35,597 bases of DNA. Source: a virus. Its lineage: Duplodnaviria > Heunggongvirae > Uroviricota > Caudoviricetes. Positions 209-35,597 of the stretch are shown piece after piece. The position numbers were made by a program, and so were the translations under genes. The stretch's first letter is position 1; each line of letters begins with the position of its first letter. The DNA is taken from IMG/VR virus record IMGVR_UViG_643348551_000007. One strand, given 5' to 3'. The notes beneath the pieces are model-generated. The model made no database searches and was not told the origin of the DNA. It was given only the letters and a program-made list of their open reading frames with translations.

Positions 209-646
209 TTACTTAATAACAGTAACCACAGCCACAAGCACGGCCATCGCAGACAGGACAATACCTGTGAGTAACCAAGTCTGATTTGCAAATGATTTCT
301 GAAGTTCAGTACGATGCTCAGCCATCTCAACTTTCAGAGACTGGCGTAAATCAGCCATCTCAGACTTCAGGGATTGGCGCGATTCTGCCATCTCAAGCCT
401 CAACCCTTCGCGAATCTCCAGTACATCAGATTTGGTAGCAAAGGATTCGCTTCTTGTGGTGAGAGTAATCAGGTTGTTTTTGATTTCAGTCACATCACTT
501 TCCAGGCAACTGACCCGCCGTTCAAGGTCGTCATTCATGCCATCACCTCCATCATTACCACTTCCTGTTACTTGGTTGTTGGATACATTATAGGCATTCT
601 CTTTCTTTTTTCTGAACCGCGAAATATGTGCAACATTCTCTGCCAT
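209..646 (-). CDS. Hypothetical coiled-coil protein with C-terminal transmembrane anchor (cargo gene downstream of int)
   Basis: ORF track 209..649; first ATG at 646 overlaps the stop of the upstream gene (ATGA coupling); repeated EMAE/LRQSLK heptad-like motifs and hydrophobic C-terminus WLLTGIVLSAMAVLVAVVTVIK; no family recognised. Confidence 0.55.
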   Translation of the reverse strand: MAENVAHISRFRKKKENAYNVSNNQVTGSGNDGGDGMNDDLERRVSCLESDVTEIKNNLITLTTRSESFATKSDVLEIREGLRLEMAESRQSLKSEMADLRQSLKVEMAEHRTELQKSFANQTWLLTGIVLSAMAVLVAVVTVIK

Positions 647-1008
647 CACTTCTCATCACCCTGCTTGCCTACCCAGTTCATAAAGGCCCGGGCCGAGTAA
701 CGATGAACAAACCCACATCTGTTACAGGTAAGTCGGAATTCATAGTTATGGATATTTTCCCGATCATGTCCCTCATATCCCGGATACCCAGTAAATGGAC
801 CGATGTAATCAAGCATAACAAAAGTGCCTAAATCACACTCCTCAGCAGTTTTCGGCTCAGGCCCCACCTCAACAATATTCGTCAAATACATGTACATATC
901 CGTATCGCCACACGACAAACATTTTTCATTCGTAGACGACTCATTGAGAAAACGCGCAAAATTATCGAGCGTTGCCATTCTTTTAAGTTCATCTAAATGA
1001 AACTTCAC
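646..1008 (-). CDS. Hypothetical zinc-ribbon protein (two CxxC pairs), cargo gene downstream of int
   Basis: ORF track 646..1008; CLSCGD and CNRCGF motifs; starts 2 bp after the int stop (GTG at 1008 or ATG at 978); same strand as int. Confidence 0.55.
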   Translation of the reverse strand: MKFHLDELKRMATLDNFARFLNESSTNEKCLSCGDTDMYMYLTNIVEVGPEPKTAEECDLGTFVMLDYIGPFTGYPGYEGHDRENIHNYEFRLTCNRCGFVHRYSARAFMNWVGKQGDEK

Positions 1009-4268: not shown

Positions 4269-4409
4269 GCACCTCCAACTGCCGGAAACCACGTCGGGCT
4301 TCAGCAGCTCATCCGGCAGCAAAACAAACTCCATTAATTCCTGTTCCGGGCCTTTCCTGCACCTTGCGGCGGGAGGCCTTCGCACATCTGTAACAAGAGG
4401 ATTGCCGCA

Positions 4410-4775
4410 ATGATTCTCGCCAACGACTTTCTTGAATACCTGCTCAACACAGAACGTGATCTTGCCGCTCGCGTGCGTGATCGTTATGACATGTACCTGA
4501 AATCCCTGCCTGTACCGCAGCTCGCTGACGGAAAGATTGTTATTGATGGTCGCTACATGATTGACAGCCACGAGGGAAATTACAGGCTTTACCGCATTGA
4601 AAGTGGCACCCCGTCCGTTATTGGCATTTACCAGCGCCCATCCTCTGCAATCGTCGATGTGATTGCCGACAGCATCCGCATCACACATCGCCATGCCGAC
4701 ACAGAAGACACCGTGCTGGAAATTCAGCGGCTGGCTACAGTCTGCCGCGACACCCTGAATGGCATGACGAAGTAA
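4410..4775 (+). CDS. Hypothetical early-operon protein
   Basis: ORF track 4410..4775; AAGAGGA Shine-Dalgarno upstream; ends 6 bp before gene A. Confidence 0.55.
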   Translation: MILANDFLEYLLNTERDLAARVRDRYDMYLKSLPVPQLADGKIVIDGRYMIDSHEGNYRLYRIESGTPSVIGIYQRPSSAIVDVIADSIRITHRHADTEDTVLEIQRLATVCRDTLNGMTK

Positions 4776-4781
4776 ATCACT

Positions 4782-7547
4782 ATGACGGCAGAGTACATCA
4801 GGGACTGGCAACAACCGCGCCACGCAGTGGGGCGTGAAGGAACGGGGATCCCCGCTCCTGAATCCGCGCTTTCCTCCTGGCTGGATGCCTACCGGGTAGA
4901 GAACGAGCGCCGCCAGGAAATGGCTGATGCGGCGTTCTCCGCAACGCCGCTGGGCAACCTGATTAATAAAAGCCTGGACGCACAGGAAAAACAGGACAAA
5001 ACCATCACACTGGCAGGAGATGCCAGAAAACAGGCACGCGGCGCGGTGGATGAAGCCATGGCCTCGCTGCGCCTGCTGCCGTCCTATCTGCGCGATCCGC
5101 TTATTCGCCACCTCTCCTTCCTGCGCAAAAAACAGGAAGCCGATCGTCAGAAAGGCAAAAAGAGCTGGCAGGCTGAACGCTACGCGCGCGGAAACCTGCG
5201 CAAAATATTCGAACGTCTGGAGCGCACCGATCACCGCTGGCTGACACAGGGTTATCGCTCCCTTGCCGGACGCGAACGCCTTGACGATTTGCTTTACCTG
5301 CCGCAGCTCAACAAACACCAGATACAGACACTGGCCACCATGACGGCGGCGATGTTCAGCAGCACCTTCGAAAAACTCTGCGATGGCTTTGGCGCGACCG
5401 ATGGCGAACTGACCATGGATGTAACGCTGAAGGCGTATCAGATGCTGGCCCGCATGGCGTTACACCTGCACGCCATGCCTCCACATTATGACGCACTGAC
5501 AACAGACAAAGACCGGAGGAACGAACCGGACACGGAGCTGCTGCCGGGCGCAATCCTTCGCCTGACCTGTGCAGAATGGTGGAAACGCAAACTGTGGCTG
5601 TTACGTTGCGAGTGGAGAGAAGAACAACTCCGCGCCGCCTGTCTGGTTTCCAGAAAAACATCGCCCTATCTGAGCCAGGACGCGTTAAGCGAGTTTCGCG
5701 CACAGCGCGAGAAAACACGCGATTTCCTGAAAAGTTTCATGCTGGAAAATGAAGACGGGTTCACGATTGATCTCGAGACAGTGTATTACGCGGGAGTAAG
5801 TAACCCGGTTCACCGTAAGGCAGAAATGATGGCCACCATGAAGGGGCTGGAACTTCTGGCCGAAGCCCGTGGTGACAAAGCGGTGTTTCTGACTGTCACC
5901 TGCCCGTCAAAATACCACGCAACAACGGAGAACGGTCATCCGAACCCCAAATGGAACGGGGCCACCATGCGCGACTCCAGCGATTACCTGGTTAACACGT
6001 TTTTTGCGGCGGTCCGCAAAAAACTGAACCGCGACGGCCTGCGCTGGTATGGCATCCGCACGGTGGAGCCTCACCATGACGGCACCGTGCACTGGCATAT
6101 GATGGTCTTTGCTCATCCGGAAGAAATCGACAGCATCGTGGCCATCACCCGCGATATTGCCATTCAGGAAGATCGTCACGAACTGGGCGATGATATTACT
6201 CCGCGCTTTAAGGCGGAGTATGTCGACGGCTCAAAAGGCACACCAACCAGCTATATCGCGACCTACATCGGAAAAAACCTGGACAGCCGCGCCGTAGATG
6301 GCATCGACCCGAAAACGGGCAAGCCACGCGTTGACCACGAAACCGGAAAATCAATGGCCGAGAGCGTGGAGCGCGCCATTGGCTGGGCGCGTCTTCATCG
6401 GGTCCGCCAGTTCCAGTTCTTTGGCATCCCCTCCCGTCAGGTATGGCGTGAACTCCGCCGCCTTGCCAGCCAGATGGCACGCAACCCGGAAGGCCCGCAA
6501 CGGCTGAAGGATGATGCAATGGATGCGGTACTCGCTGCCGCTGATGCCGGGTGTTTTGCCTCCTACATTGAAAAACAGGGCGGCGTACTTGTTCCACGTA
6601 AAGACTACCTGATTCGCACCGCCTACGACCTCGCAGATGAGCTGAACGATTACGGCGAGCAGAGTGTACAGATTTACGGGATCTGGTCGCCGCTCATCGG
6701 GGAGTCTTCCCGCGTGTGCACGCACCCGGATAACTGGAAGCTGGTAAGACGTAAACCGGAAGCGGAAGACAGCGCCCGCGAAAATGGTTTTGACATTCAG
6801 GGCGGCCCTACCGCCCCTTGGACTCGTGGCAATAACTGTCCCCGTGTACAGGAAACAGGCAACAGCGGGACAGAACAGTCGGAAGAGCAACCAACACCGT
6901 GGTCGCAGATCCCTGACGGCGTTGATGTGGATGAATGGATGCGCTCACTGAAACGGCACGAACGCCGGGCGCTGATGCGTTCGCTGTGTGACAAACGGGC
7001 AAAAAACAGCAGTGATGAAATGCGGAGCTGGACACAGAGCCGCAAACAGCAACGGCCTTTGCCTGATAACCACGAATTACTTGCTAAAGAATGGCGGGAG
7101 TCTGCTGAATCTCTCGGCCTGCATATCGGTGAACAGCAGATGCAGCACCTGTTACGGGGCGGCAGCCTGTACGTTGACGGCAGCATCATTGCACCGCAGG
7201 GATTTGAAATTGTACGCAAACCGGATACCCGCCCGGACAGCCGAATCACGCAGCTCTGGCAGCGCCTGAGCCGTAATCACGGCGTAAGCAGCACGGAGAT
7301 CCGCCATAACCCGGTCGCCAGCTATCTGGAACAGCTAGGGGCATCAGACCCCGAAGCCGCCGCACACCTGGCATCCACACTTCAGCAAGACCTGAGCACC
7401 ATGAAAACACCAGTTACCGTGCTTTCTGACATGCTGCGCGCCATCCGTGACGCAGAGCACGCACAACGCATCAGTGCAACCACAAAGCATGTACGCCGCA
7501 AAGCTGACCTTCTACAGTCTTGGTTAAACAATAGAAATAAAGAGTAG
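4782..7547 (+). CDS. A: Rolling-circle replication initiation endonuclease, P2 A-like
   Basis: ORF track; HUH motif in GTVHWHMMVF and paired catalytic tyrosines in TSYIATYIGKN (YxxxY, as in phiX174 A / P2 A); 921 aa, longer than P2 A, with a C-terminal extension. Confidence 0.93.
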   Translation: MTAEYIRDWQQPRHAVGREGTGIPAPESALSSWLDAYRVENERRQEMADAAFSATPLGNLINKSLDAQEKQDKTITLAGDARKQARGAVDEAMASLRLLPSYLRDPLIRHLSFLRKKQEADRQKGKKSWQAERYARGNLRKIFERLERTDHRWLTQGYRSLAGRERLDDLLYLPQLNKHQIQTLATMTAAMFSSTFEKLCDGFGATDGELTMDVTLKAYQMLARMALHLHAMPPHYDALTTDKDRRNEPDTELLPGAILRLTCAEWWKRKLWLLRCEWREEQLRAACLVSRKTSPYLSQDALSEFRAQREKTRDFLKSFMLENEDGFTIDLETVYYAGVSNPVHRKAEMMATMKGLELLAEARGDKAVFLTVTCPSKYHATTENGHPNPKWNGATMRDSSDYLVNTFFAAVRKKLNRDGLRWYGIRTVEPHHDGTVHWHMMVFAHPEEIDSIVAITRDIAIQEDRHELGDDITPRFKAEYVDGSKGTPTSYIATYIGKNLDSRAVDGIDPKTGKPRVDHETGKSMAESVERAIGWARLHRVRQFQFFGIPSRQVWRELRRLASQMARNPEGPQRLKDDAMDAVLAAADAGCFASYIEKQGGVLVPRKDYLIRTAYDLADELNDYGEQSVQIYGIWSPLIGESSRVCTHPDNWKLVRRKPEAEDSARENGFDIQGGPTAPWTRGNNCPRVQETGNSGTEQSEEQPTPWSQIPDGVDVDEWMRSLKRHERRALMRSLCDKRAKNSSDEMRSWTQSRKQQRPLPDNHELLAKEWRESAESLGLHIGEQQMQHLLRGGSLYVDGSIIAPQGFEIVRKPDTRPDSRITQLWQRLSRNHGVSSTEIRHNPVASYLEQLGASDPEAAAHLASTLQQDLSTMKTPVTVLSDMLRAIRDAEHAQRISATTKHVRRKADLLQSWLNNRNKE

Positions 7548-7681
7548 TGGATGGGTAAAAATTAATAATAAGTATAAGCAATGTCGACAAACCAAGACAC
7601 AACAAGTATTCAACACAATTAATCATGCACGTGCAAATAGCAATAACATTAACACATTATTTATATAAAAAAAGCGATCTG

Positions 7682-7738
7682 ATATTATTTCGGTTGTGGG
7701 CTTGGTATTTTCAAACCCACAACAATAATATTATTTCG
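7682..7738. terminator. Intergenic hairpin flanked by an 11-bp direct repeat; candidate bidirectional terminator between convergent A and cargo operon
   Basis: Stem GTTGTGGG (7693-7700) / CCCACAAC (7716-7723) with 15-nt loop; ATATTATTTCG occurs at 7682-7692 and again at 7728-7738; AT-rich intergenic 7548-7757. Confidence 0.4.
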
Positions 7739-7757
7739 ATATATTAAACATAGACAA

Positions 7758-8549
7758 TCACCCTATTTTTCTATGCATTTTCATGAGCTCCCTTATTAAG
7801 CTAGCATGAAAGATTGATACATCAGAAATCCTTGTATCAATAGATGAATCAATATTATCAGAAACCTTTTGCTCAAATAAATCACAGATACCATCAAGTG
7901 ACTCAATATCTTTTTCCAACTTAGAAAAACCCTTAAATAGATATAATGAATCCCTTAACTCCCCAAGCTTTGAAAATAGTTGGCTATCTAGTAATGATAT
8001 AAATTCATCAGGGGGAAGCCCCATCGCATCCTTAAAATCTTCCGTAACTTCAAAAGCTAATCCATTAATTTTAGGGAGAATAACTTCTCGTAACCAATAC
8101 CCTTCGTTTATAGCTTCATTTCTTCCTTTATAATGCTGCCACAAAGGAACTCCTACAGATGCAATTAGCGCAATAATTGAAATTGCTATAGAGTACCATT
8201 CAGGTCCTGATTCAGGAACTCTAACGATATTATAGAGATTCCCCGATGAGGTTGAGGGGTAATATCCATTCAGAACATAATTATCAGGTTTATCATAAAG
8301 AAGGTGCGGTGTAAACTTCCTTTCATAACTATTGCATAATTTTAGATCGCTATTTTTTCCAATGCATATATCAGCATTAAAAATGTTTCCACTCTTTGGT
8401 TCTATTACGTGAGACTCTGAATTTTGCGAATCCATGTTAGACGCGGTTCTTTCTGGATATGTCGCAGAGCAAGCGGATATATTAACAAAAAAAATGACAG
8501 GCAATGCTGTCATTTTAAAAACAGAGCACAAATCAGAAGAACGGAACAT
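7758..8549 (-). CDS. Predicted membrane lipoprotein, third gene of the cargo operon
   Basis: ORF track; N-terminus MFRSSDLCSVFKMTALPVIFFVNISAC has a signal-peptide-like hydrophobic core and lipobox-like ISAC; internal hydrophobic helix WYSIAISIIALIASVGVPLW; acidic C-terminal domain; AT-rich; overlaps upstream gene by 17 bp. Confidence 0.65.
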   Translation of the reverse strand: MFRSSDLCSVFKMTALPVIFFVNISACSATYPERTASNMDSQNSESHVIEPKSGNIFNADICIGKNSDLKLCNSYERKFTPHLLYDKPDNYVLNGYYPSTSSGNLYNIVRVPESGPEWYSIAISIIALIASVGVPLWQHYKGRNEAINEGYWLREVILPKINGLAFEVTEDFKDAMGLPPDEFISLLDSQLFSKLGELRDSLYLFKGFSKLEKDIESLDGICDLFEQKVSDNIDSSIDTRISDVSIFHASLIRELMKMHRKIG

Positions 8550-8877
8550 TTCGATGTAATCCTCTTCTCACAGCCCTATCCAGCTCAGAAAGCATTCCTT
8601 CTTTATAATTCACTCCATCTAAAGATGTTCTGCTATAAAATTCATTCGGAGATGAAAAAAGAGGCAATATATTCTCTAGCATACCCAAAAAGTATGAGCT
8701 TGACACAACCACACCATTCGGAATTGATAGAAAAATCCTATCATTGTTATCAAAAGTAAAGCGATCTATGCCAAAGAAACTATATGCCTTGCGACCATTA
8801 TCACGCCCAGCAAATAATTTCTTGCCGCCATCTTTAACTAATTTATTGAAATCTATATAAATATTTGCCATTTTCAT
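8533..8877 (-). CDS. Small STAS-like (DUF4325-like) protein, second gene of the cargo operon
   Basis: 114 aa; segment FLSIPNGVVVSSSYFLGMLENIL resembles the DUF4325/STAS-like signature (hydrophobic-x-SSSF-x-D/E-L), a family typically encoded next to GHKL ATPases; starts 11 bp after the ATPase stop. Confidence 0.6.
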   Translation of the reverse strand: MKMANIYIDFNKLVKDGGKKLFAGRDNGRKAYSFFGIDRFTFDNNDRIFLSIPNGVVVSSSYFLGMLENILPLFSSPNEFYSRTSLDGVNYKEGMLSELDRAVRRGLHRNVPFF

Positions 8878-8888
8878 TTACCTATTCC

Positions 8889-10265
8889 TCAGGTTCTTTG
8901 AGTTGCATTTTCCGGTAAAGGAAAACGTATATTAATCATAACTCCCGGAAAACGGGCTTTCTGCATACACTTAAGATAGGTACGATCTGGTTCAGATTCA
9001 AGCCCTGTATTATTAAATGGATAAGTGAATTTGTCACTTTGGTTATCTAACGTTTGCTTTTTCAACTTATAAGAACCATCAAAGTTTATATGTGTGCATC
9101 CAGAAATTAAAGACATTCTGATGTTTCCACTTAGTTCTTTGGATAGTTCTTTTAAACTATCATGCATATCCTGGAAAAACTTCAATAGTTCAATGGTTCC
9201 CGTACCAGAACTATCTGTCTCCGTTTCATTTTTACAACTAACCCGCCCCTGCAAAGCAGCGACTGTAATCAAACCTTCTCTAAACATCCCTTTTTTATTT
9301 ATGTGTTTTTCCACATAAGGGATTATGTGATTGTTATATGAATAATGTTCTAAAGAAAGTCCTGAAAAAGTTTCATCAATAGTTTTTCCAAAGTTAAAAA
9401 CAGCTATTTCACATGTTGGCTGTTTTAAGCCATTATTTACAAACCCCCTCAAATACCAACGCGGACGCTGCTCAAGCCCACAATGTCTCTCTGCATTATC
9501 AAGTAATTCGCCCATGCAAGATGTTAGATGGTTTTCTGCCTTGCTAACTAATTTTAATTGATGATCACTTAGACACTCGTTTATATAATTAGTGAATTTC
9601 TCAGACATTCTATTTTTGGTATCTTGTGCAAATGCAGACGCATTTTCCTTGCCGATACTATCAGCAGAGAATATTCTTTTCTTAGGGTTATCTTTTTTCG
9701 ATTTTTCTGTTTCATCATGCACCTTCCCTGGCGTCACTTTATTTATTTCTTTAACCAACCCGATGTCACGAATAATTTCTAAATATTTTTCATCCTTCGG
9801 ATAAATGCCATTAAGTTGTACTTGAGCATCTTTTAAATTTATATTGTGACGTTTGGCTGAGCTCAGTGCAACACCAAGGAGACATTCCGCACCTAAACAA
9901 TGCTTTTTATTTTTAGTATAATCAAGCAAATATGATTTACGTTTACCCCTGGCAATCAATCTAGTTACACCATGAATAAACAAAAGAGATTTTTCTGGAT
10001 GATCAAACAAATCGAAATATTTAGGTATTATTATTCTATCTTCTTTGCGACGAAGAGTTGCAGTATCATATTTCTTTACGGATGAAATACTTTCAATAAA
10101 AGTAGCCACCTGACTTTTCACTGGTGTTACTTCGTCAGAAAAATGTAACCTTTCATAGGCTTTATATTTAATTCTTCTTTTATTTTTTCTCTCAACGCCT
10201 TTTAAAAAGCGAATCCAACCACGTAAAAAGCGTTTTCTTGCATCCTTTTTATCTATTTTTTTCAC
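8889..10265 (-). CDS. GHKL-superfamily (histidine/serine-kinase-like) ATPase, first gene of the cargo operon
   Basis: 458 aa; Bergerat-fold N-box ELLDNAERH and glycine-rich DSSGTGT downstream; lysine-rich N-terminal region of about 240 aa; apparent GTG start with AAGGTG Shine-Dalgarno; AT-rich. Confidence 0.7.
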   Translation of the reverse strand: MKKIDKKDARKRFLRGWIRFLKGVERKNKRRIKYKAYERLHFSDEVTPVKSQVATFIESISSVKKYDTATLRRKEDRIIIPKYFDLFDHPEKSLLFIHGVTRLIARGKRKSYLLDYTKNKKHCLGAECLLGVALSSAKRHNINLKDAQVQLNGIYPKDEKYLEIIRDIGLVKEINKVTPGKVHDETEKSKKDNPKKRIFSADSIGKENASAFAQDTKNRMSEKFTNYINECLSDHQLKLVSKAENHLTSCMGELLDNAERHCGLEQRPRWYLRGFVNNGLKQPTCEIAVFNFGKTIDETFSGLSLEHYSYNNHIIPYVEKHINKKGMFREGLITVAALQGRVSCKNETETDSSGTGTIELLKFFQDMHDSLKELSKELSGNIRMSLISGCTHINFDGSYKLKKQTLDNQSDKFTYPFNNTGLESEPDRTYLKCMQKARFPGVMINIRFPLPENATQRT

Positions 10266-10299
10266 AATTCACCTTACTTAACAAACATCTATACTACTT

Positions 10300-10340
10300 C
10301 ATTGCAAAGTATACATATCACTTGCTAATACACAATATGG
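10300..10340 (-). promoter_or_regulatory. Candidate sigma70 promoter for the cargo operon
   Basis: On the minus strand TTGTGT - 16 nt - TATACT about 40-70 nt upstream of the GTG start at 10265; sequence inspection only. Confidence 0.25.
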
Positions 10341-10485
10341 CTTCGAGATAATCCGCAGCATCTGCACAATAGTGCACAAATTTGCACAATTTTTTTGAAC
10401 GACTTTTTGCCCTTCCGGCCCGCATGGCGGCTGGATCCGTCAAGGATCCGTGCGTGCACAAAAAAACACACTTTTTCTGCGCGCA

Positions 10486-10504
10486 GGTGACGGGGGAACA
10501 GCCC
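10486..10504. other. Putative cos (cohesive end) site region
   Basis: GGTGACGGGGGAACAGCCC matches about 13 of 19 positions of the P2 cos overhang as I recall it (GGCGAGGCGGGGAAAGCAC); lies in the noncoding gap between the tin/old slot and Q where P2 cos is located. Confidence 0.2.
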
Positions 10505-24010: not shown

Positions 24011-24544
24011 ATGATGCACTTAAAAAACATTACTGCTGGCAACCCTAAAACAAAAGAGCAATACCAGCTAACAAAGCAATTTAACATCAAATGGCTTTAT
24101 TCAGATGATGGAAAAAACTGGTATGAGGAACAAAAGAATTTCCAGCCAGACACTTTGAAAATGGTCTATGACCATAACGGCGTTATTATTTGTATTGAAA
24201 AGGATGGTTCAGCAATTAATCCGGAAGGCGCAAGCGTCGTTGAATTACCTGATATTACAGCAAATCGCCGGGCTGATATTTCGGGGAAATGGTTGTTCAA
24301 AGATGGCGTAGTGATAAAGCGAACTTATACCGAGGAAGAGCAGAGGCAACAAGCGGAAAATGAAAAGCAAAGCCTGTTGCAACTTGTCAGGGATAAAACC
24401 CAGCTATGGGACTCACAGCTACGGCTGGGCATCATTTCCGACGAGAATAAACAAAAATTAACCGAGTGGATGCTCTATGCGCAGAAAGTCGAATCTACAG
24501 ACACCTCCAGCCTGCCAGTAACGTTTCCCGAACAACCAGAATGA
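24011..24544 (+). CDS. G: Tail fibre assembly protein (currently expressed copy)
   Basis: 177 aa; conserved N-terminus [22 protein letters not shown] shared with the inverted copy. Confidence 0.85.
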   Translation: MMHLKNITAGNPKTKEQYQLTKQFNIKWLYSDDGKNWYEEQKNFQPDTLKMVYDHNGVIICIEKDGSAINPEGASVVELPDITANRRADISGKWLFKDGVVIKRTYTEEEQRQQAENEKQSLLQLVRDKTQLWDSQLRLGIISDENKQKLTEWMLYAQKVESTDTSSLPVTFPEQPE

Positions 24545-24547
24545 GAG

Positions 24548-24575
24548 AAGGCCCGATATTGGGCCTTAATTTTTA
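24548..24575. terminator. Bidirectional rho-independent terminator between the convergent tail-fibre assembly genes
   Basis: AAGGCCC-gatatt-GGGCCTT hairpin followed by AATTTTT. Confidence 0.65.
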
Positions 24576-25100
24576 CTCAGGCTTTTGTGGCCATTCTGGA
24601 TTTGCTGTATCCACACGGCTGACCAGAACGCTGTAGCGTTCCCATGACTCCAGTCGTGTGCGTTCCTCATCCGTCGCCATATTCAGCCTGACAGCGCGTT
24701 CCAGTGGCTGAATAACGCTTTCAGCTTCAGAAAGCAACGCGACCTTTTGTGATTCGGCCTGTTGTTGCTGTTCGTCTGCTGTATAAATCCGCTTAACCAC
24801 AGTTCCGTCCTTAAACATCCACTTCCCTGAATCATCGGCACGACGATTGGCTGTTATATCTGGAATCTCAACGACACTAAAGCCTTCGGGATTAAGCGTT
24901 GAGGCATCTTTGGTTATGGCAACAATAATATTATTTTCGTCGTATACAATCTTTATGGTGTCGTCCTGAAAGTTATTTACTTCCTCATACCAGTTTTTAC
25001 CGTCTTCGGACCATAACCAGATAACATCAAAATTCTTTGTTAGCTGATATTGTTCTTTTGTTTTTGGACTTCCGGACTTAATATTTTTTAAATGCTGCAT
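24573..25100 (-). CDS. Tail fibre assembly protein (alternative copy)
   Basis: 175 aa; N-terminus [22 protein letters not shown] paralogous to 24011..24544. Confidence 0.85.
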
Positions 25101-25103
25101 AAT

Positions 25104-25976
25104 TTACACCTGTGCGACGTTATACCATGTGCCATTGATGTATTTTTGTATTGGTCTGAAGATGGCTTCATCATCGCCATCTACTTCACCAATGATTCTT
25201 AATCCGGTAATTGCGTGTCCGGCTTTTTCATAACGACCACCACGCGCCATCAATTGAACAACACGCGTACCCAGGCGAACATCTTTTACATAGCGTGAAT
25301 CAAAATTCCCCCAGTTGCTGGGCTGTATCTGACCGTTAACAGAAAATATTACCGAGTTATCTGTATTTCGCTGGCTATAGAAATGCCATCCTGCCTCATC
25401 GCCTAACTCTGCAACTACTGGACGGGTTGAAGCACCCCATAAATTAAACGTTGCATTCTTTGTGGAGGTGTTGGAGCTGGATAGCGAGAACTTTTTACTA
25501 TCACCTGCCTGAATGTTTTTAAAAGCAATAGCAACTCCATTCTGAAAGCGGAATACTCGCTGACTATTAGCGTAAACATCCAGAATACCATCACCATTCT
25601 GTTTGAATCCGGTGTCATTATCACCAAGAACAATAGAGCTACCACCTAACGCATTCGTCGTACCAACTCCAAGACTGCCATTAATGACGGCATTTACCAG
25701 AATATTTAGTGCATCCCATTTCAGCGTCATCAGGTCTTTTGTTGTGGTGCTCTGGCGGCTTCTCCATTTGAAATATTCATTGCCGTTGTCGCCTGTTTCA
25801 AACCACATGTATGAATCAGTGTCACCATCAGCATCATTTTTAAATCCAATCTTCGCCCAGTCAGTATTTCGAATCCAGGCAAGGATTGAGTCATTTTCAA
25901 AAGTAAGCCTACCGGACAAAGTATCGCCATTTTTTTGCACGGCGTTACCAGCCCTGTTTACCGTTTCCTGTAAACC
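25104..25976 (-). CDS. Alternative tail-fibre C-terminal cassette (promoterless and startless until inversion)
   Basis: Open frame runs from the right gix site; on inversion it would read ...EYLGLQETVNRAGNAVQKNGD... in frame with H; C-terminus IQKYINGTWYNVAQV parallels that of H. Confidence 0.75.
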   Translation of the reverse strand, partial: GLQETVNRAGNAVQKNGDTLSGRLTFENDSILAWIRNTDWAKIGFKNDADGDTDSYMWFETGDNGNEYFKWRSRQSTTTKDLMTLKWDALNILVNAVINGSLGVGTTNALGGSSIVLGDNDTGFKQNGDGILDVYANSQRVFRFQNGVAIAFKNIQAGDSKKFSLSSSNTSTKNATFNLWGASTRPVVAELGDEAGWHFYSQRNTDNSVIFSVNGQIQPSNWGNFDSRYVKDVRLGTRVVQLMARGGRYEKAGHAITGLRIIGEVDGDDEAIFRPIQKYINGTWYNVAQV

Positions 25977-25990
25977 GAGGTTTTAAATAA
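25963..25990 (-). other. gix-like recombination (crossover) site, right
   Basis: Reverse complement reads TTATTTAAAACCTCGGTTTACAGGAAAC, near-identical to the Gin gix consensus as I recall it. Confidence 0.75.
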
Positions 25991-26026
25991 TGGCCGTTTC
26001 TGGCCTGCATGGCATGATTTGCGCTT

Positions 26027-26644
26027 TTGGACGGGAGATTCAGTGTGCTGATTGGCTATGTAAGGGTATCAACAAATGACCAGAATACAGACCTGCAACG
26101 AAACGCTCTTGTTTGTGCAGGATGTGAACAAATATTTGAAGATAAATTAAGCGGGACAAAGACAGACCGACCGGGATTAAAACGCGCTTTAAAGCGCCTT
26201 CAAAAAGGTGACACGCTGGTTGTCTGGAAACTGGATCGCCTCGGGCGAAGCATGAAACATCTGATTTCTCTCGTCGGGGAACTACGGGAGCGAGGGATTA
26301 ATTTTCGCAGTCTGACCGACAGCATAGACACATCTTCTCCAATGGGGCGTTTTTTCTTCCACGTGATGGGTGCCCTGGCTGAAATGGAACGTGAATTAAT
26401 TGTTGAACGTACACTGGCCGGGCTGGCGGCAGCGCGCGCAAGGGGGCGCACAGGCGGACGTCGACCGAAGCTGACAAAAGAACAGCATGAGCAAATAGCA
26501 AGGCTAATCAAAAACGGGCACGACAGAAAACAACTGGCAATAATTTACGGCATTGGCACATCGACGATTTATCGTTATCACCCTGTAGGCGATATACAGA
26601 CTGAAGAAACAACCGGGCAGACTCAGGAAAATGAAAACCGCTAA
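26027..26644 (+). CDS. Serine recombinase, Gin/Pin/Hin-family DNA invertase
   Basis: VLIGYVRVSTNDQNTDLQRNALVCAGCEQIFEDKLSG... is near-identical over the catalytic domain to Mu Gin as I recall it; likely true start is the GTG at 26045. Confidence 0.95.
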   Translation: MDGRFSVLIGYVRVSTNDQNTDLQRNALVCAGCEQIFEDKLSGTKTDRPGLKRALKRLQKGDTLVVWKLDRLGRSMKHLISLVGELRERGINFRSLTDSIDTSSPMGRFFFHVMGALAEMERELIVERTLAGLAAARARGRTGGRRPKLTKEQHEQIARLIKNGHDRKQLAIIYGIGTSTIYRYHPVGDIQTEETTGQTQENENR

Positions 26645-32415: not shown

Positions 32416-33513
32416 ATGACCGACACCACCATGCAATTGCTCAGTCAGGGCACAGACCCCGTGAAAATGCCGGATTTTGATATTCTCGCGGAGGGTAAAA
32501 CGCTGTCAGGCGTGGCAGAGCGCCTGATGAGCCTGTCACTGACCGACAACCGGGGATTTGAGGCGGACCAGCTCACCATCACGCTGGATGATGCGGATGG
32601 TCAGTTGCAGCTACCGCCACGGGGCGCGCGCCTGACGGTTCTCATTGGCTGGAAAGGAGAACCGCTGACAGAAAAAGGCACTTACATTGTTGATGAAATC
32701 GCTCACGAAGGACCGCCGGACAGGCTGACGGTTTCAGCCAGAAGCGCAGATTTTCGGGATGAATTTAACGTTAAACGTGAGGTGTCCTGGCATGATGTGA
32801 CCGTTGAGCGCGTGGTATCCGCCATCGCTCATCGGTACGGTCTGAAACCACAAATCAGCGAAATGCTGATGGATATTGAAATCGACCACGCCGACCAGAC
32901 CGAAGAAAGCGACATGTCCTTCCTTACGCGCATGGCGGAAATGCTGGGCGCAATCACTACGGTAAAAAGCGGTAATCTGTTATTCATCATGCCAGGCGGT
33001 GGCGTGAACGCGCAGGGCCAGCCGTTGCCCTCGTTCGCCATCACACGCAGCAGCGGCGATCGCCATCAGTTCCGCATTGCTGACCGAGAGGCGTATACGG
33101 GGGTACGCGCTTACTGGCTTGATCTTAATTACGGGAAAAAGAAAAAAGTCAGCGTGAAACGCCGTAAACCGAAAATGGAGAAAAGCAGTAGCCGTGAAGG
33201 CGACTATATGGAAGGTGCGGAAGGCAACGTGTTTGTGTTACGCAAGACTTATCAGAACGAACAGGCAGCAAGACGCGCTGCGGCGGCAAAGTGGCAGCAG
33301 CTACAACGCGGAGCCGCATCATTCTCCATCACACTGGCACGTGGACGCGCAGAACTCTACCCCGAAATGCATGGCACGGTAACAGGATTTAAAAGCGAGA
33401 TTGATAATCAGGACTGGATTATTGCAAAAGCCGAGCACACCATTGATAACAGCGGTTTTACCACGCAGCTTGAACTTGAAACAAAAATCCCTGAATGGAT
33501 TGCGCAGACCTAA
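32416..33513 (+). CDS. D: Tail protein D (late control gene D family)
   Basis: LSLTDNRGFEADQL, RSADFR, SWHD, ITRSDGDRH-like, EGDYMEGAEGNVF and SGFTTQLELE blocks match P2 gpD as I recall it; start set at ATG 32416 with GGGAGGG Shine-Dalgarno. Confidence 0.9.
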   Translation: MTDTTMQLLSQGTDPVKMPDFDILAEGKTLSGVAERLMSLSLTDNRGFEADQLTITLDDADGQLQLPPRGARLTVLIGWKGEPLTEKGTYIVDEIAHEGPPDRLTVSARSADFRDEFNVKREVSWHDVTVERVVSAIAHRYGLKPQISEMLMDIEIDHADQTEESDMSFLTRMAEMLGAITTVKSGNLLFIMPGGGVNAQGQPLPSFAITRSSGDRHQFRIADREAYTGVRAYWLDLNYGKKKKVSVKRRKPKMEKSSSREGDYMEGAEGNVFVLRKTYQNEQAARRAAAAKWQQLQRGAASFSITLARGRAELYPEMHGTVTGFKSEIDNQDWIIAKAEHTIDNSGFTTQLELETKIPEWIAQT

Positions 33514-33643: not shown

Positions 33644-34804
33644 TTAATCAAGTTTTTGCTGATGATACCGATACAGCATCATTCTAAGTTTTAGCAAGGT
33701 TGTACTATCATTATCTGCAGAGCAAAAATTATACCAACCTTCAGTATATTTATTTAAAGTATCAAAGTAATAATCCTTCAATGGATCATCCCTATCTGAG
33801 TGGAGACAAGAAAACATCTTCTGAAGAATATAATTTAATTCACCTGTAGGAAGCCTCGAAATAATCACATCACAAGTAGTTGTTAAATCTTCAATATTCA
33901 TTTTCTGAAGATTATTTCTAATCTCTAAAACGATCGGATAGAGTTTACTCAAAAACTCATTTACTTCATCTTGAAGATGCTTCTCTTTAACACAACCATC
34001 AAACAAATGAATTAACTCTTCCAATTGCATTCGGTAATAATCATTATTACCTCGTATAGCGACTTCTGAAAGAAGCAGCCTCAACTCATCATAAATGTTA
34101 TCGGTGGATGATATAACTTGCGCGGACAAAACATCGTAATGGTTGTTACGAATTACCACTATAGAGTCCATTAGTTTTTCTAGATATTTATACCTACTTT
34201 CAACATATGAGATAAGCTCGTTAAATTTAATACCGAAAATAACATCATCCACACCGGGTTTATTATTATAAAGACTTATAGTAAAATCATTATTATTAAG
34301 TGCATAAAAATGAGGCCAACTCGCAAACAATCTCTCCCCGTGGTTATTTTTAAGATTCGTAGGGTGAGCACCAAAAATAGCGCGAACACTCTTAAAATAA
34401 GAGTCATCATCCTCATGCGAAAGATAATGTATTTTATCCTTAAAAATATCAACAGAGCCTTTAAAGGGCCATTTCATAAAATTATTGTCACTTTCAATAA
34501 TACGATGGAGTTGCCGCACCGCTTCCACTATTATATCGATTGATGATATAATAGTATAAATCTGCATAGCTTTAATATCAATGTCTTCAGATATTTCAGG
34601 GATGTTCATAAGATAGCGTACAGAAACAGTAATCCAATCCATGCATGAACAAATAGGGCTGAACTGATTTTTACCATTTCTGTTTATGAAGTAACTATAA
34701 ACAAAATCTCTTTCATTAACTACATCGCGAAAATCCGTTATTAAAGTATCATTAATAGTTATACCAAAATTTGTCTTAGTTATCTTCATGGTGACCATTT
34801 TCAC
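33644..34804 (-). CDS. AT-rich cargo gene, hypothetical 386-aa cytoplasmic protein (possible Abi/HEPN-like)
   Basis: ORF track; strongly AT-rich, opposite orientation to flanking D and ogr; contains an R-x5-H stretch (RAIFGAH); no TM segments. Confidence 0.7.
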   Translation of the reverse strand: MKMVTMKITKTNFGITINDTLITDFRDVVNERDFVYSYFINRNGKNQFSPICSCMDWITVSVRYLMNIPEISEDIDIKAMQIYTIISSIDIIVEAVRQLHRIIESDNNFMKWPFKGSVDIFKDKIHYLSHEDDDSYFKSVRAIFGAHPTNLKNNHGERLFASWPHFYALNNNDFTISLYNNKPGVDDVIFGIKFNELISYVESRYKYLEKLMDSIVVIRNNHYDVLSAQVISSTDNIYDELRLLLSEVAIRGNNDYYRMQLEELIHLFDGCVKEKHLQDEVNEFLSKLYPIVLEIRNNLQKMNIEDLTTTCDVIISRLPTGELNYILQKMFSCLHSDRDDPLKDYYFDTLNKYTEGWYNFCSADNDSTTLLKLRMMLYRYHQQKLD

Positions 34805-35005: not shown

Positions 35006-35266
35006 ATGTTCCGTTGTCCGCTTTGTGGCGCATCTGCCCGTATCCGCACCAGTCGTCCGGAAAATGATTCAAACACCGTGCGGCAAAAGTATTACCAGTG
35101 TAACAACCTGGAATGCGGCGTATGCTTCTCAACACTGGAAGCTTTCCATAAATTCACATCGAAACACGCCTCCGGCGTTCACTCTTCAGATGGTATCCCG
35201 TGGCATGAGCTGCCAGCTTCACACAGGGGAAACAATCAGATGAGTTTGCCTTTACCTCAGAATTAA
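35006..35266 (+). CDS. ogr: Zinc-finger late-gene transcriptional activator, Ogr/Delta family
   Basis: MFRCPLCGASARIRTSR...YYQCNNLECG parallels P2 Ogr (MFHCPLC...YHQCQNVNCS) with four Cys; AAGGGAGG Shine-Dalgarno. Confidence 0.9.
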   Translation: MFRCPLCGASARIRTSRPENDSNTVRQKYYQCNNLECGVCFSTLEAFHKFTSKHASGVHSSDGIPWHELPASHRGNNQMSLPLPQN

Positions 35267-35456: not shown

Positions 35457-35597
35457 ATGTCGCAAAAATCGCTTACGGCCATCACGTTCTGCGTGACGGC
35501 AATCCTCATCATCTGGATGCTGCACGGTTCGCTGTGCGAAATACGGATGAGCTTCTGGGGAGCGGAGTTTGCGGCGTTCTTACAGTGTAAGCAGTAA
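35457..35597 (+). CDS. Hok/Gef-family type I toxin (46 aa)
   Basis: Not in the ORF track (<60 aa); translation MSQKSLTAITFCVTAILIIWMLHGSLCEIRMSFWGAEFAAFLQCKQ has an N-terminal TM helix plus the SLCEI and AAF signatures of Hok peptides (closest in my memory to HokA); AGGAG Shine-Dalgarno; stop codon is the last 3 bases of the window. Confidence 0.65.
   Translation: MSQKSLTAITFCVTAILIIWMLHGSLCEIRMSFWGAEFAAFLQCKQ

Follow-up and report, generated by a model that had tools for sequence, protein, structure and literature searches.

Kinase-STAS partner switching has long been seen as a form of sigma-factor control, and in 2026 its logic was extended to one anti-phage toxin system, VapKSC, and to a family of immune-operon regulators, CapK-CapS. 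VapKSC is an anti-phage system of three genes encoding VapK (STAS and GHKL domains), VapS (a STAS protein of 116 amino acids) and VapC (a PIN toxin) (Chambers, Corbett et al., EMBO J 2026, PMC13373217). VapS binds and inhibits VapC, and with the phosphomimetic substitution S48E it neither binds VapC nor acts as an antitoxin (PMC13373217). CapK, a helix-turn-helix (HTH)-STAS-GHKL kinase activated by single-stranded DNA (ssDNA), phosphorylates CapS, a STAS-winged-HTH (wHTH) repressor, and in 88 of 443 cases the pair lies directly downstream of restriction-modification (R-M) systems (PMC13373217). Here we describe three consecutive genes, K, S and M, of a P2-like prophage of Escherichia coli (IMG/VR record IMGVR_UViG_643348551_000007; "the window" is the whole stretch of 35,597 nucleotides that was analysed), and compare them with these systems.

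K-S-M is a self-contained, horizontally mobile three-gene module situated in the anti-phage hotspot of the prophage. We are highly confident of the anatomy of the three genes and of the conservation of the triad. The best explanation for the locus, to which we give a probability of roughly 50%, is that K-S-M is an anti-phage module in which a kinase-STAS switch resembling that of VapKSC would control a membrane effector, M. In favour of this reading are the invariant motifs of K, the profile link between S and DUF4325, the conservation of the triad, the overlap of the S and M genes, the hotspot context and the VapKSC precedent. A role against phages, by whatever mechanism, is somewhat better favoured; the specific release of M by phosphorylation of S, set out below, is a tentative proposal.

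The resemblance to VapKSC extends over several levels. In both, the kinase gene comes first, that of the small STAS protein second and that of the effector (putative in K-S-M) third; another domain precedes the SpoIIAB-like GHKL domain of the kinase (predicted in K); the small partner belongs to the DUF4325 superfamily (116 amino acids in VapS, 114 in S), with a conserved Ser at the same position and a C-terminal helix; no phosphatase is encoded; and the genes lie on mobile or defence-associated DNA. The N-box, the G1 and G2 boxes and the C-terminal strand of the two kinases also align in register. By contrast, the effector VapC is a PIN nuclease, whereas M is a predicted transmembrane (TM) protein with no PIN match; VapK has 302 amino acids and K has 458, including a basic tail of ~65; the G1 box reads DFGVG in VapK and NFGxT in K; and the aromatic residue with which VapK (F54) and CapK (W68) contact ssDNA is without a conserved counterpart in K.

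CapK-CapS likewise combine a GHKL kinase with a STAS substrate and share with K-S-M an adjacency to R-M genes, seen in two divergent K-S-M loci that follow type III R-M systems. They differ in that CapK has an HTH and CapS a wHTH, whereas profile searches detected no HTH family in the K or S families, and S, at 114 amino acids, is too short for a wHTH; further, CapK-CapS control a downstream multi-gene immune operon, whereas only M lies downstream in K-S-M. The pairs SpoIIAB-SpoIIAA and RsbW-RsbV supply the best structural match of K, and in their STAS-type partner, too, helix 2 begins with a conserved Ser. Unlike them, K-S-M comes without a sigma factor or PP2C phosphatase, K has ~235 extra N-terminal residues, S falls in the DUF4325 branch rather than in PF01740, and the output would be a membrane protein.

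The K-S-M operon and its distribution

The window is a complete P2-like prophage of E. coli SE11 (NC_011415.1, 100% identity), which extends from the integrase gene (1011-1988) to ogr (35006-35266). The three genes are packed on the minus strand between the gene for the replication endonuclease gpA and portal gene Q. Each was called both as an open reading frame (ORF) and as a RefSeq coding sequence, and RefSeq describes each product as "hypothetical protein":

4782-7547, plus strand: gene A, replication endonuclease gpA
7758-8549, minus strand: gene 3 (M), 263 amino acids, WP_012565106.1
8533-8877, minus strand: gene 2 (S), 114 amino acids, WP_000781372.1
8889-10265, minus strand: gene 1 (K), 458 amino acids, GTG start, WP_000717775.1
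10814-11860, minus strand: portal gene Q

Between genes 1 and 2 lie 11 nt, and genes 2 and 3 share 17 nt. The G+C fraction is 0.30-0.37 over positions 7500-10500, against 0.52-0.59 on both flanks. Cos-proximal sequence begins at about 10362, and because positions 10362-10400 are identical to the 40 nt with which linear P2-like phage genomes end, the island sits at cos. The gpA-gpQ interval is the P2 hotspot, the slot in which P2 itself has old and tin; it is an established defence hotspot, and it also holds non-defence cargo such as partition systems and cytolethal distending toxin (Rousset et al. 2022, PMC9122126). The initial annotation had described an AT-rich, tightly packed minus-strand operon of three genes with 11-bp and overlapping junctions, placed in the tin-old slot of P2. 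The ORFs, base composition and RefSeq coding sequences confirm the first part of this description, and the gpA-gpQ interval, the cos-end match and the published hotspot confirm the second.

The three window proteins have no match in Pfam, NCBIfam or PADLOC v2, even at E ≤ 1, and when 67 diverse members of the three families were scanned with PADLOC, just one marginal match came up. The P2 hotspot catalogue of Rousset et al. (2022) lists the operon as "hypothetical + hypothetical + hypothetical" (WP_000717775 with WP_001761865 or WP_012565106 and with WP_000781372), and the N-termini of the window proteins are absent from all supplements of that study. Searches of the literature by accession, by DUF4325 and by the combination of STAS, kinase, transmembrane and anti-phage returned no description of the triad, and a 2026 preprint on P2/P4 hotspots does not mention it. 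The triad is unnamed, and the earlier statement that it is not a named system holds with respect to PADLOC v2 and the tested systems of Rousset et al. (2022); the kinase-STAS logic itself was already published in 2026 with a different effector.

We considered whether the triad is Rst_3HP, the validated system of three hypothetical proteins from E. coli E1114, and rejected this identity: the proteins given in Table S2A are unrelated, and there was no PADLOC match. Along with P2 old/tin and other hotspot cargo, Rst_3HP resembles K-S-M in its slot, its AT-richness and its three "hypothetical proteins", but the protein sequences are unrelated. A different kind of likeness is found in 2TM+1TM+TIR (phage AC1), reverse transcriptase (RT)-nitrilase+1TM and Hydrolase+3TM, in which a sensor or enzyme of the cytoplasm is coupled with a small TM protein whose presumed effect is cell death or arrest (Rousset et al. 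2022, PMC9122126); these signal through a TIR, RT or hydrolase rather than a kinase and STAS protein, and have no sequence relation to M.

Although rare in E. coli (9 of 5,426 complete genomes have the operon), the triad is widely kept together. In each of the 24 viral loci (IMG/VR contigs with a gene 1 relative), K, S and M stand side by side in unchanged order, and detection by hidden Markov models (HMMs) found the same contiguous arrangement in 23 of 23 gamma- and beta-proteobacterial genome loci. Divergent gene 1 homologues (28-46% identity) always precede a gene of ~110 codons, which is followed by one of ~190-315 codons. The homologues of all three ORFs, down to 24-45% identity and in other genera, and the kept gene order together show that the ORFs are not due to chance. 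Across the viral loci the rank of divergence is constant, with gene 2 the slowest, gene 1 intermediate and gene 3 the fastest. When 100,044 species were scanned, each represented by one genome, 21 loci emerged, all of whose credible hosts are gamma-, beta- or alpha-Proteobacteria. Inspection of the window and of more than 50 related loci revealed neither a PP2C phosphatase nor a sigma factor gene.

Sixteen of the 24 viral contigs have the triad in the P2 hotspot, between portal/terminase and gpA of P2-family phages whose core genes are far from those of the window (portal 45-72%, gpA 29-40% identity). At other sites it keeps varied company. In locus L031 (2373-6823; gene 1 identity 31%) the triad is directly downstream of a type III R-M pair (N6_N4_Mtase and ResIII, Mod+Res), and in L003/L004 (377-3397; 42%) such a pair again lies upstream, with an integrase fragment and two small ORFs between. 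One triad adjoins lysis genes in a lambdoid prophage region, one is in an element with a P4-like primase, one is on a Pantoea plasmid amid toxin-antitoxin (TA) modules, and some adjoin integrases; in Aeromonas, it forms a clean three-gene insertion that separates metabolic genes.

This distribution bears on whether the cassette acts against phages at all. It could instead be an addiction (TA-like) module that stabilises its mobile element, or serve envelope-acting lysogenic conversion, as the non-defence cargo of the P2 hotspot (Rousset et al. 2022) and the copy among plasmid TA modules would allow. We regard this as unlikely, given that 16 of the 24 viral loci, in P2-family phages that have diverged from one another, share one slot, and given the repeated adjacency to type III R-M genes. 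Moreover, the closest analogue, VapKSC, is TA-like yet protects against phages, and a module may serve both addiction and abortive infection.

K, a GHKL kinase-like protein, and its partner S

From its motifs and its modelled fold, K is predicted to be a GHKL kinase-like protein of the SpoIIAB/RsbW type with a basic tail and an extra alpha/beta domain, and S is predicted to be a divergent DUF4325/STAS-like protein. Their parts are as follows (pLDDT, predicted local distance difference test):

10071-10265, minus strand: K residues 1-65, strongly basic N-terminal helix or tail (24 Lys/Arg in residues 1-75; modelled helix at 6-36)
9561-10070, minus strand: K residues 66-235, conserved alpha/beta N-domain (alternating strands and helices, pLDDT 80-95)
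8892-9560, minus strand: K residues 236-458, predicted Bergerat-fold (GHKL) domain of the anti-sigma-factor serine-kinase type
9483-9509, minus strand: N-box ELLDNAERH (E253, N257, H261), invariant in 36/36 family members, aligned with VapK EIYANSFEH
9378-9395, minus strand: variant G1 box NFGKTI (N291 for Asp, T295 for the second Gly), aligned with VapK DFGVGI
9195-9215, minus strand: G2 box DSSGTGT (G354, G356), both Gly invariant in 36/36, aligned with VapK RGLGL
8683-8703, minus strand: S residues S59-S60-S61-Y-F-L-G65, candidate phospho-acceptor motif at the start of the second helix

An AlphaFold model of K built on the homologue alignment is confident, with a pLDDT of 83.7 and a predicted template modelling score of 0.83, and the top six Foldseek matches of this model are all anti-sigma-factor kinases, with SpoIIAB/RsbW the nearest. 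Among the features that define GHKL proteins, K has the Bergerat alpha/beta sandwich, the ExxxN N-box and the G2 box, which continues with T357, a hydrophobic residue and L360; the G1 box departs from DxGxG. When the family profile of the C-terminal domain was aligned by hhalign with the single sequence of VapK, four motifs fell in register over 145 columns (P 0.017): ELLDNAERH with EIYANSFEH, VFNFGKTI with VVDFGVGI, SSGTGT with PRGLGL and, in the last strand, FPGVMINIRF with FEGTILNITL.

Direct searches with K were less informative. The window protein has no match to Pfam HATPase_c or HATPase_c_2 at E ≤ 1, the best of the 36 members reaches E 0.041, and none of the 56 homologue clusters has a Pfam domain; the gene 1 profile found nothing meaningful among PDB sequences, and in PHROGs K falls in a family of unknown function (phrog_3364, E 2.7e-7). 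VapK itself reaches HATPase_c only at E 8.5e-5, below the gathering score (VapS matches DUF4325 at E 2.7e-17), indicating that such kinases are hard to detect by sequence.

The G1-box Asp contacts adenine in GHKL proteins. In the K family the corresponding position, which aligns with D190 of VapK, is Asn (N291) in 35 of 36 members, while G293 is present in all 36 and Thr or Ser stands at position 295 in all 36. With Asn in the G1 box and Thr/Ser in place of its second Gly, normal ATP binding and kinase activity of K are uncertain. K may accordingly be a pseudokinase or a GHKL protein that does not use ATP, acting through regulated binding only or through another nucleotide, so that S would not be phosphorylated; the failure of both HATPase models to match K fits this as well. 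We nonetheless think it improbable, since without nucleotide chemistry there is little reason for the Mg-binding Asn257, Glu253, His261 and the two G2 glycines to be invariant. The phospho-site Ser of S is 96% conserved, and VapK, which is genetically required, likewise scores poorly against HATPase_c.

N-terminal to the GHKL domain, the first 75 residues hold 14-29 Lys/Arg in all 36 family members, the sequence of the tail itself being unconserved. For the N-domain that follows we found no significant fold match, Foldseek returning only macro-like folds at E ~1. Aligned by hhalign with the STAS region of the single VapK sequence, the family profile of the N-domain together with the N-box is collinear, at a non-significant 0.082, and the N-domain is possibly the counterpart of the STAS domain of VapK and CapK. 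An hhalign comparison showed no sign (probability below 1%) that the N-terminal half of K is an internal STAS duplicate of gene 2.

S is likewise out of reach of a direct search: neither the window protein nor 25 close homologues match DUF4325 (PF14213) at E ≤ 10. A search of 1.84 billion representative proteins with the HMM of the gene 2 family, at a library-wide threshold of E ≤ 1e-3, recruited 100 proteins, mostly of 100-115 amino acids. Eleven of these are Pfam DUF4325 proteins (best E 3.7e-8), and no other family recurs among the 100. This places S, by its sequence relationships, in the DUF4325 branch rather than in the canonical STAS family PF01740. PHROGs assigns it to a family of unknown function (phrog_37359, E 7.7e-4).

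The motif SSSYFLG is invariant in 25 of 25 close homologues of S. Across the 100 superfamily members, G24, G28 and G65 are conserved at 99-100% (G65 at 100%), position 61 is Ser in 96% (Ser or Thr in 98%) and position 60 is Ser in 75%. Against PDB sequences the gene 2 profile has a sole, weak match, the anti-sigma antagonist TM1081 (E 0.14), in which VVSSSYFLG of S is aligned with the STAS phospho-serine motif (IDSFSLG); in an hhalign comparison of the family profile with the single sequence of VapS, S60 falls on Ser48, whose phosphorylation was mapped by experiment (P 0.22). We infer that S60/S61 is the candidate phospho-acceptor.

These results sharpen the earlier view of both proteins. The initial annotation took gene 1 for a GHKL protein on the strength of ELLDNAERH and DSSGTGT, which the 36/36 invariance, the model and Foldseek uphold; the Asn of the G1 box had gone unnoticed. 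Its lysine-rich N-terminal domain of ~240 amino acids proved correct as to the basic part, now a tail of ~65 residues, and incorrect as to a single domain, because an alpha/beta domain of ~170 residues follows. The DUF4325/STAS-like assignment of gene 2 is recovered through the family profile, with its 11 DUF4325 proteins among 100 recruits. Profile searches had been put forward as the check on these assignments; direct searches of Pfam, NCBIfam and PADLOC gave no GHKL or STAS hits, the outcome named as counting against the assignments, and it is by the other routes described here that the GHKL fold of K and the DUF4325/STAS-like relationship of S are supported.

The membrane protein M and a proposed switch

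Gene 3 has 15 homologue clusters, with no relatives in Pfam or PDB. The protein has exactly two hydrophobic segments, a signal peptide and a TM helix. Its parts, and the expression signals of the operon, are as follows:

8469-8549, minus strand: M residues 1-27, signal peptide with lipobox ISAC (24-27) preceded by basic residues, Cys27 invariant
8238-8468, minus strand: M residues 28-104, hypervariable, presumably periplasmic segment (mean pairwise identity 31%)
8139-8237, minus strand: M residues 105-137, juxtamembrane motif VPESGPEW and single predicted TM helix (Kyte-Doolittle peak 118-139)
7761-8138, minus strand: M residues 138-263, conserved, predicted cytoplasmic helical domain, beginning with a basic stretch and INEGYWLREVILPKIN
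10266-10361, minus strand: non-coding leader of the operon, with the Shine-Dalgarno sequence and the presumed promoter, ending at the conserved cos-proximal sequence
8483-8516, minus strand: terminator-like hairpin (10 bp) with a T8 run inside the 5' end of gene 3, from a terminator scan
7692-7723, minus strand: 12-bp hairpin without an adjacent T-run, 35 nt past the gene 3 stop, read from the sequence

Conservation in M is concentrated around and behind the membrane: mean pairwise identity is 79% in VPESGPEW, 62% in the TM helix and 64% in the next 125 residues. The signature [SN][IV]xD[DEG][FY]W[LFIM]R[KEDQ][VI] follows the TM helix and basic stretch in all gamma- and beta-proteobacterial loci. 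Distant third genes have a different signal peptide and an unrelated low-complexity ectodomain, and retain the TM helix, the basic stretch and the signature; in three alpha-proteobacterial loci M is minimal, an N-terminal hydrophobic anchor with the helical domain and no ectodomain. The predicted invariant core of M is thus one TM helix with a cytoplasmic helical domain of ~125 amino acids. The window copy has a canonical lipobox ([LVI][ASTVI][GAS]C, here ISAC) and is predicted to be lipidated, while most close homologues have PTAC with the Cys invariant, and distant ones have signals of the signal peptidase I type or no signal, and no lipobox. Hence the description of gene 3 as a lipoprotein with an internal TM helix stands as to the single helix, and as to the lipoprotein feature applies to one clade but not to the distant members.

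Because the ectodomain differs between clades and is missing from the alpha-proteobacterial proteins, it and the lipoprotein character appear dispensable, and on the same grounds we rejected the ectodomain of M as a conserved sensor. This bears on a further reading, in which M would be the sensor or anchor for envelope events such as phage DNA injection or membrane perturbation, and either K-S would relay the signal to a host target encoded elsewhere or the ATPase of K would be the output. A hypervariable ectodomain is what one would expect of a surface in an arms race, and M has no toxin-like domain; but a low-complexity, clade-specific and dispensable ectodomain cannot be a conserved sensor, and movement of the cassette alone among Aeromonas, Paraburkholderia, Vibrio and Ensifer argues against a specific host target. 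We therefore rate this reading as quite unlikely, the least probable of those that we weighed. As a separate observation, two of the three alpha-proteobacterial loci (L054, L055) have an ORF for a secreted staphylococcal-nuclease-like protein with a signal peptide ~1.1-1.6 kb upstream of K, S and the minimal M.

Synthesis of M appears to be tied to that of S. The overlap of the two genes recurs in L032, L033, L038 and L039 (14-17 nt), which points to coupled synthesis and fits a stoichiometric pair of inhibitor and effector. The hairpin at 8483-8516 (AAAATGACAG-CATTGC-CTGTCATTTT, then T8) lies within codons 1-22 of gene 3, 17 nt past the gene 2 stop, and covers the internal ATG of Met13. An equivalent hairpin and T-run with differing stem sequences is present in 8 of ~13 distinct close locus types, and RNAalifold gave 11 consensus pairs, four of them with compensatory changes (ACAG/CTGT to GCAG/CTGC), in what is a small, hand-selected sample. 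This intragenic hairpin may act as an attenuator, transcriptional or translational, that lowers M in relation to K and S, as would fit a dangerous effector. The GTG start of gene 1 has the Shine-Dalgarno sequence TAAGGTGA 5 nt upstream; a consensus scan of the minus strand upstream of gene 1 found no strong sigma-70 site (14 counts against a shuffle expectation of 11.8). The hairpin at 7692-7723, which the terminator scan did not call, is a possible 3' end of the operon transcript. Over the island, Rfam gave only a sub-threshold snoRNA match, which we judged to be noise.

We propose that, in the uninfected lysogen, S would be bound to the cytoplasmic domain of M and keep it inert. Infection would provide a cue, possibly a nucleic acid sensed through the basic tail and N-domain of K, that activates K; K would phosphorylate S at S60/S61, phospho-S would release M, and free M would compromise the inner membrane, leading to aborted infection or to a block at the envelope. 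By analogy with VapKSC, the anti-phage role, the kinase activity, the phospho-acceptor residue, the binding partner of S and the place of M as effector are all putative in this scheme. In its most specific form, K-S-M would be an unrecognised anti-phage family in which a nucleic-acid- or membrane-sensing GHKL kinase with an atypical pocket phosphorylates a DUF4325 "antitoxin" and so frees a new single-pass membrane effector, a formulation that we hold only tentatively. The initial annotation had already suggested a partner switch. Its logic is the one shown for VapKSC, so that the idea has gained a precedent and is no longer unprecedented, while the anti-phage role and membrane effector that it envisaged keep the conditional standing given here.

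The wiring could also follow the classical polarity of RsbW, RsbV and sigma-B: K would sequester the cytoplasmic domain of M, unphosphorylated S would compete M off, and phosphorylation of S by K would reset the switch. The anti-sigma factors that K matches best in structure operate in this way, and its extra conserved N-domain could hold such a partner. This polarity would, however, call for a PP2C phosphatase to regenerate unphosphorylated S, and none is encoded in or beside any locus; in VapKSC, the closest three-gene analogue, it is S that binds the effector; and the translational overlap joins S to M, not K to M. We consider it an improbable arrangement of the same components.

Several observations weigh against the VapKSC-like anti-phage reading as a whole. 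A change of the G1 Asp to Asn abolishes ATP binding in other GHKL proteins, and the adenine-contacting Asp is replaced by Asn in 35 of the 36 K proteins. The similarity of K and S to VapK and VapS is non-significant (P 0.017-0.08 for K and 0.22 for S), and we therefore treat K-S-M as working like VapKSC rather than as a member of it. No pore-forming, enzymatic or toxin domain is recognisable in M by Pfam or PDB sequence searches. In pooled Pfam counts, the neighbours in the genome representatives are generic mobile-element genes, with no clear defence island. Lastly, the operon was catalogued by Rousset et al. (2022) but lies outside the systems that they cloned and tested, and its defence role is putative.

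Other accessory regions of the prophage and implications

Outside the K-S-M island, the prophage has further variable regions. A second AT-rich island (33644-34798, minus strand; G+C 0.33-0.35) between the gpD-like gene and ogr encodes a 384-amino-acid ORF, without a Pfam or PADLOC match, that is a further unannotated cargo gene of the accessory kind. The gpD-like gene itself (32672-33513) is annotated as a 262-amino-acid member of the VgrG/Pvc8 family, and the short pseudogene fragment in front of it (32672-32764) suggests rearrangement at the junction with this island. Positions 24011-26644 are probably an invertible tail-fibre (host-range) segment, in which a recombinase-family gene (26045-26644) adjoins two genes for tail-fibre assembly that face opposite ways (24011-24544, plus strand; 24573-25100, minus strand), together with an inverted ORF of 278 amino acids (25104-25940) that has a Gp34 trimerisation domain (E 1.3e-11). 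Past the integrase are two small hypothetical ORFs (209-1008, minus strand; 145 and 120 amino acids, G+C ~0.43) with only insignificant matches of the coiled-coil type. A Hok/Gef-family toxin gene (35457-35597) lies just past ogr, and an ash-family pseudogene fragment (4294-4413) is in the early region upstream of gene A.

The K-S-M cassette, at 2.6 kb, with its own leader and of E. coli origin, is easily tested, and its atypical G1 box is a natural experiment on nucleotide recognition by GHKL proteins. If our reading is true, it would explain one cargo of three "hypothetical" proteins among the ~19% of P2-like hotspots without a recognised defence gene, give a role to part of the large and barely studied DUF4325 family, and add, in the intragenic hairpin, an extra layer of control that may hold the dosage of the effector under that of its inhibitor. 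It would also constitute a second, sequence-unrelated branch with a membrane effector, making the kinase-STAS switch a reusable immune trigger: a module that could be plugged onto a PIN nuclease, a transcription factor or a membrane protein, akin to cyclic-nucleotide signalling in CBASS.

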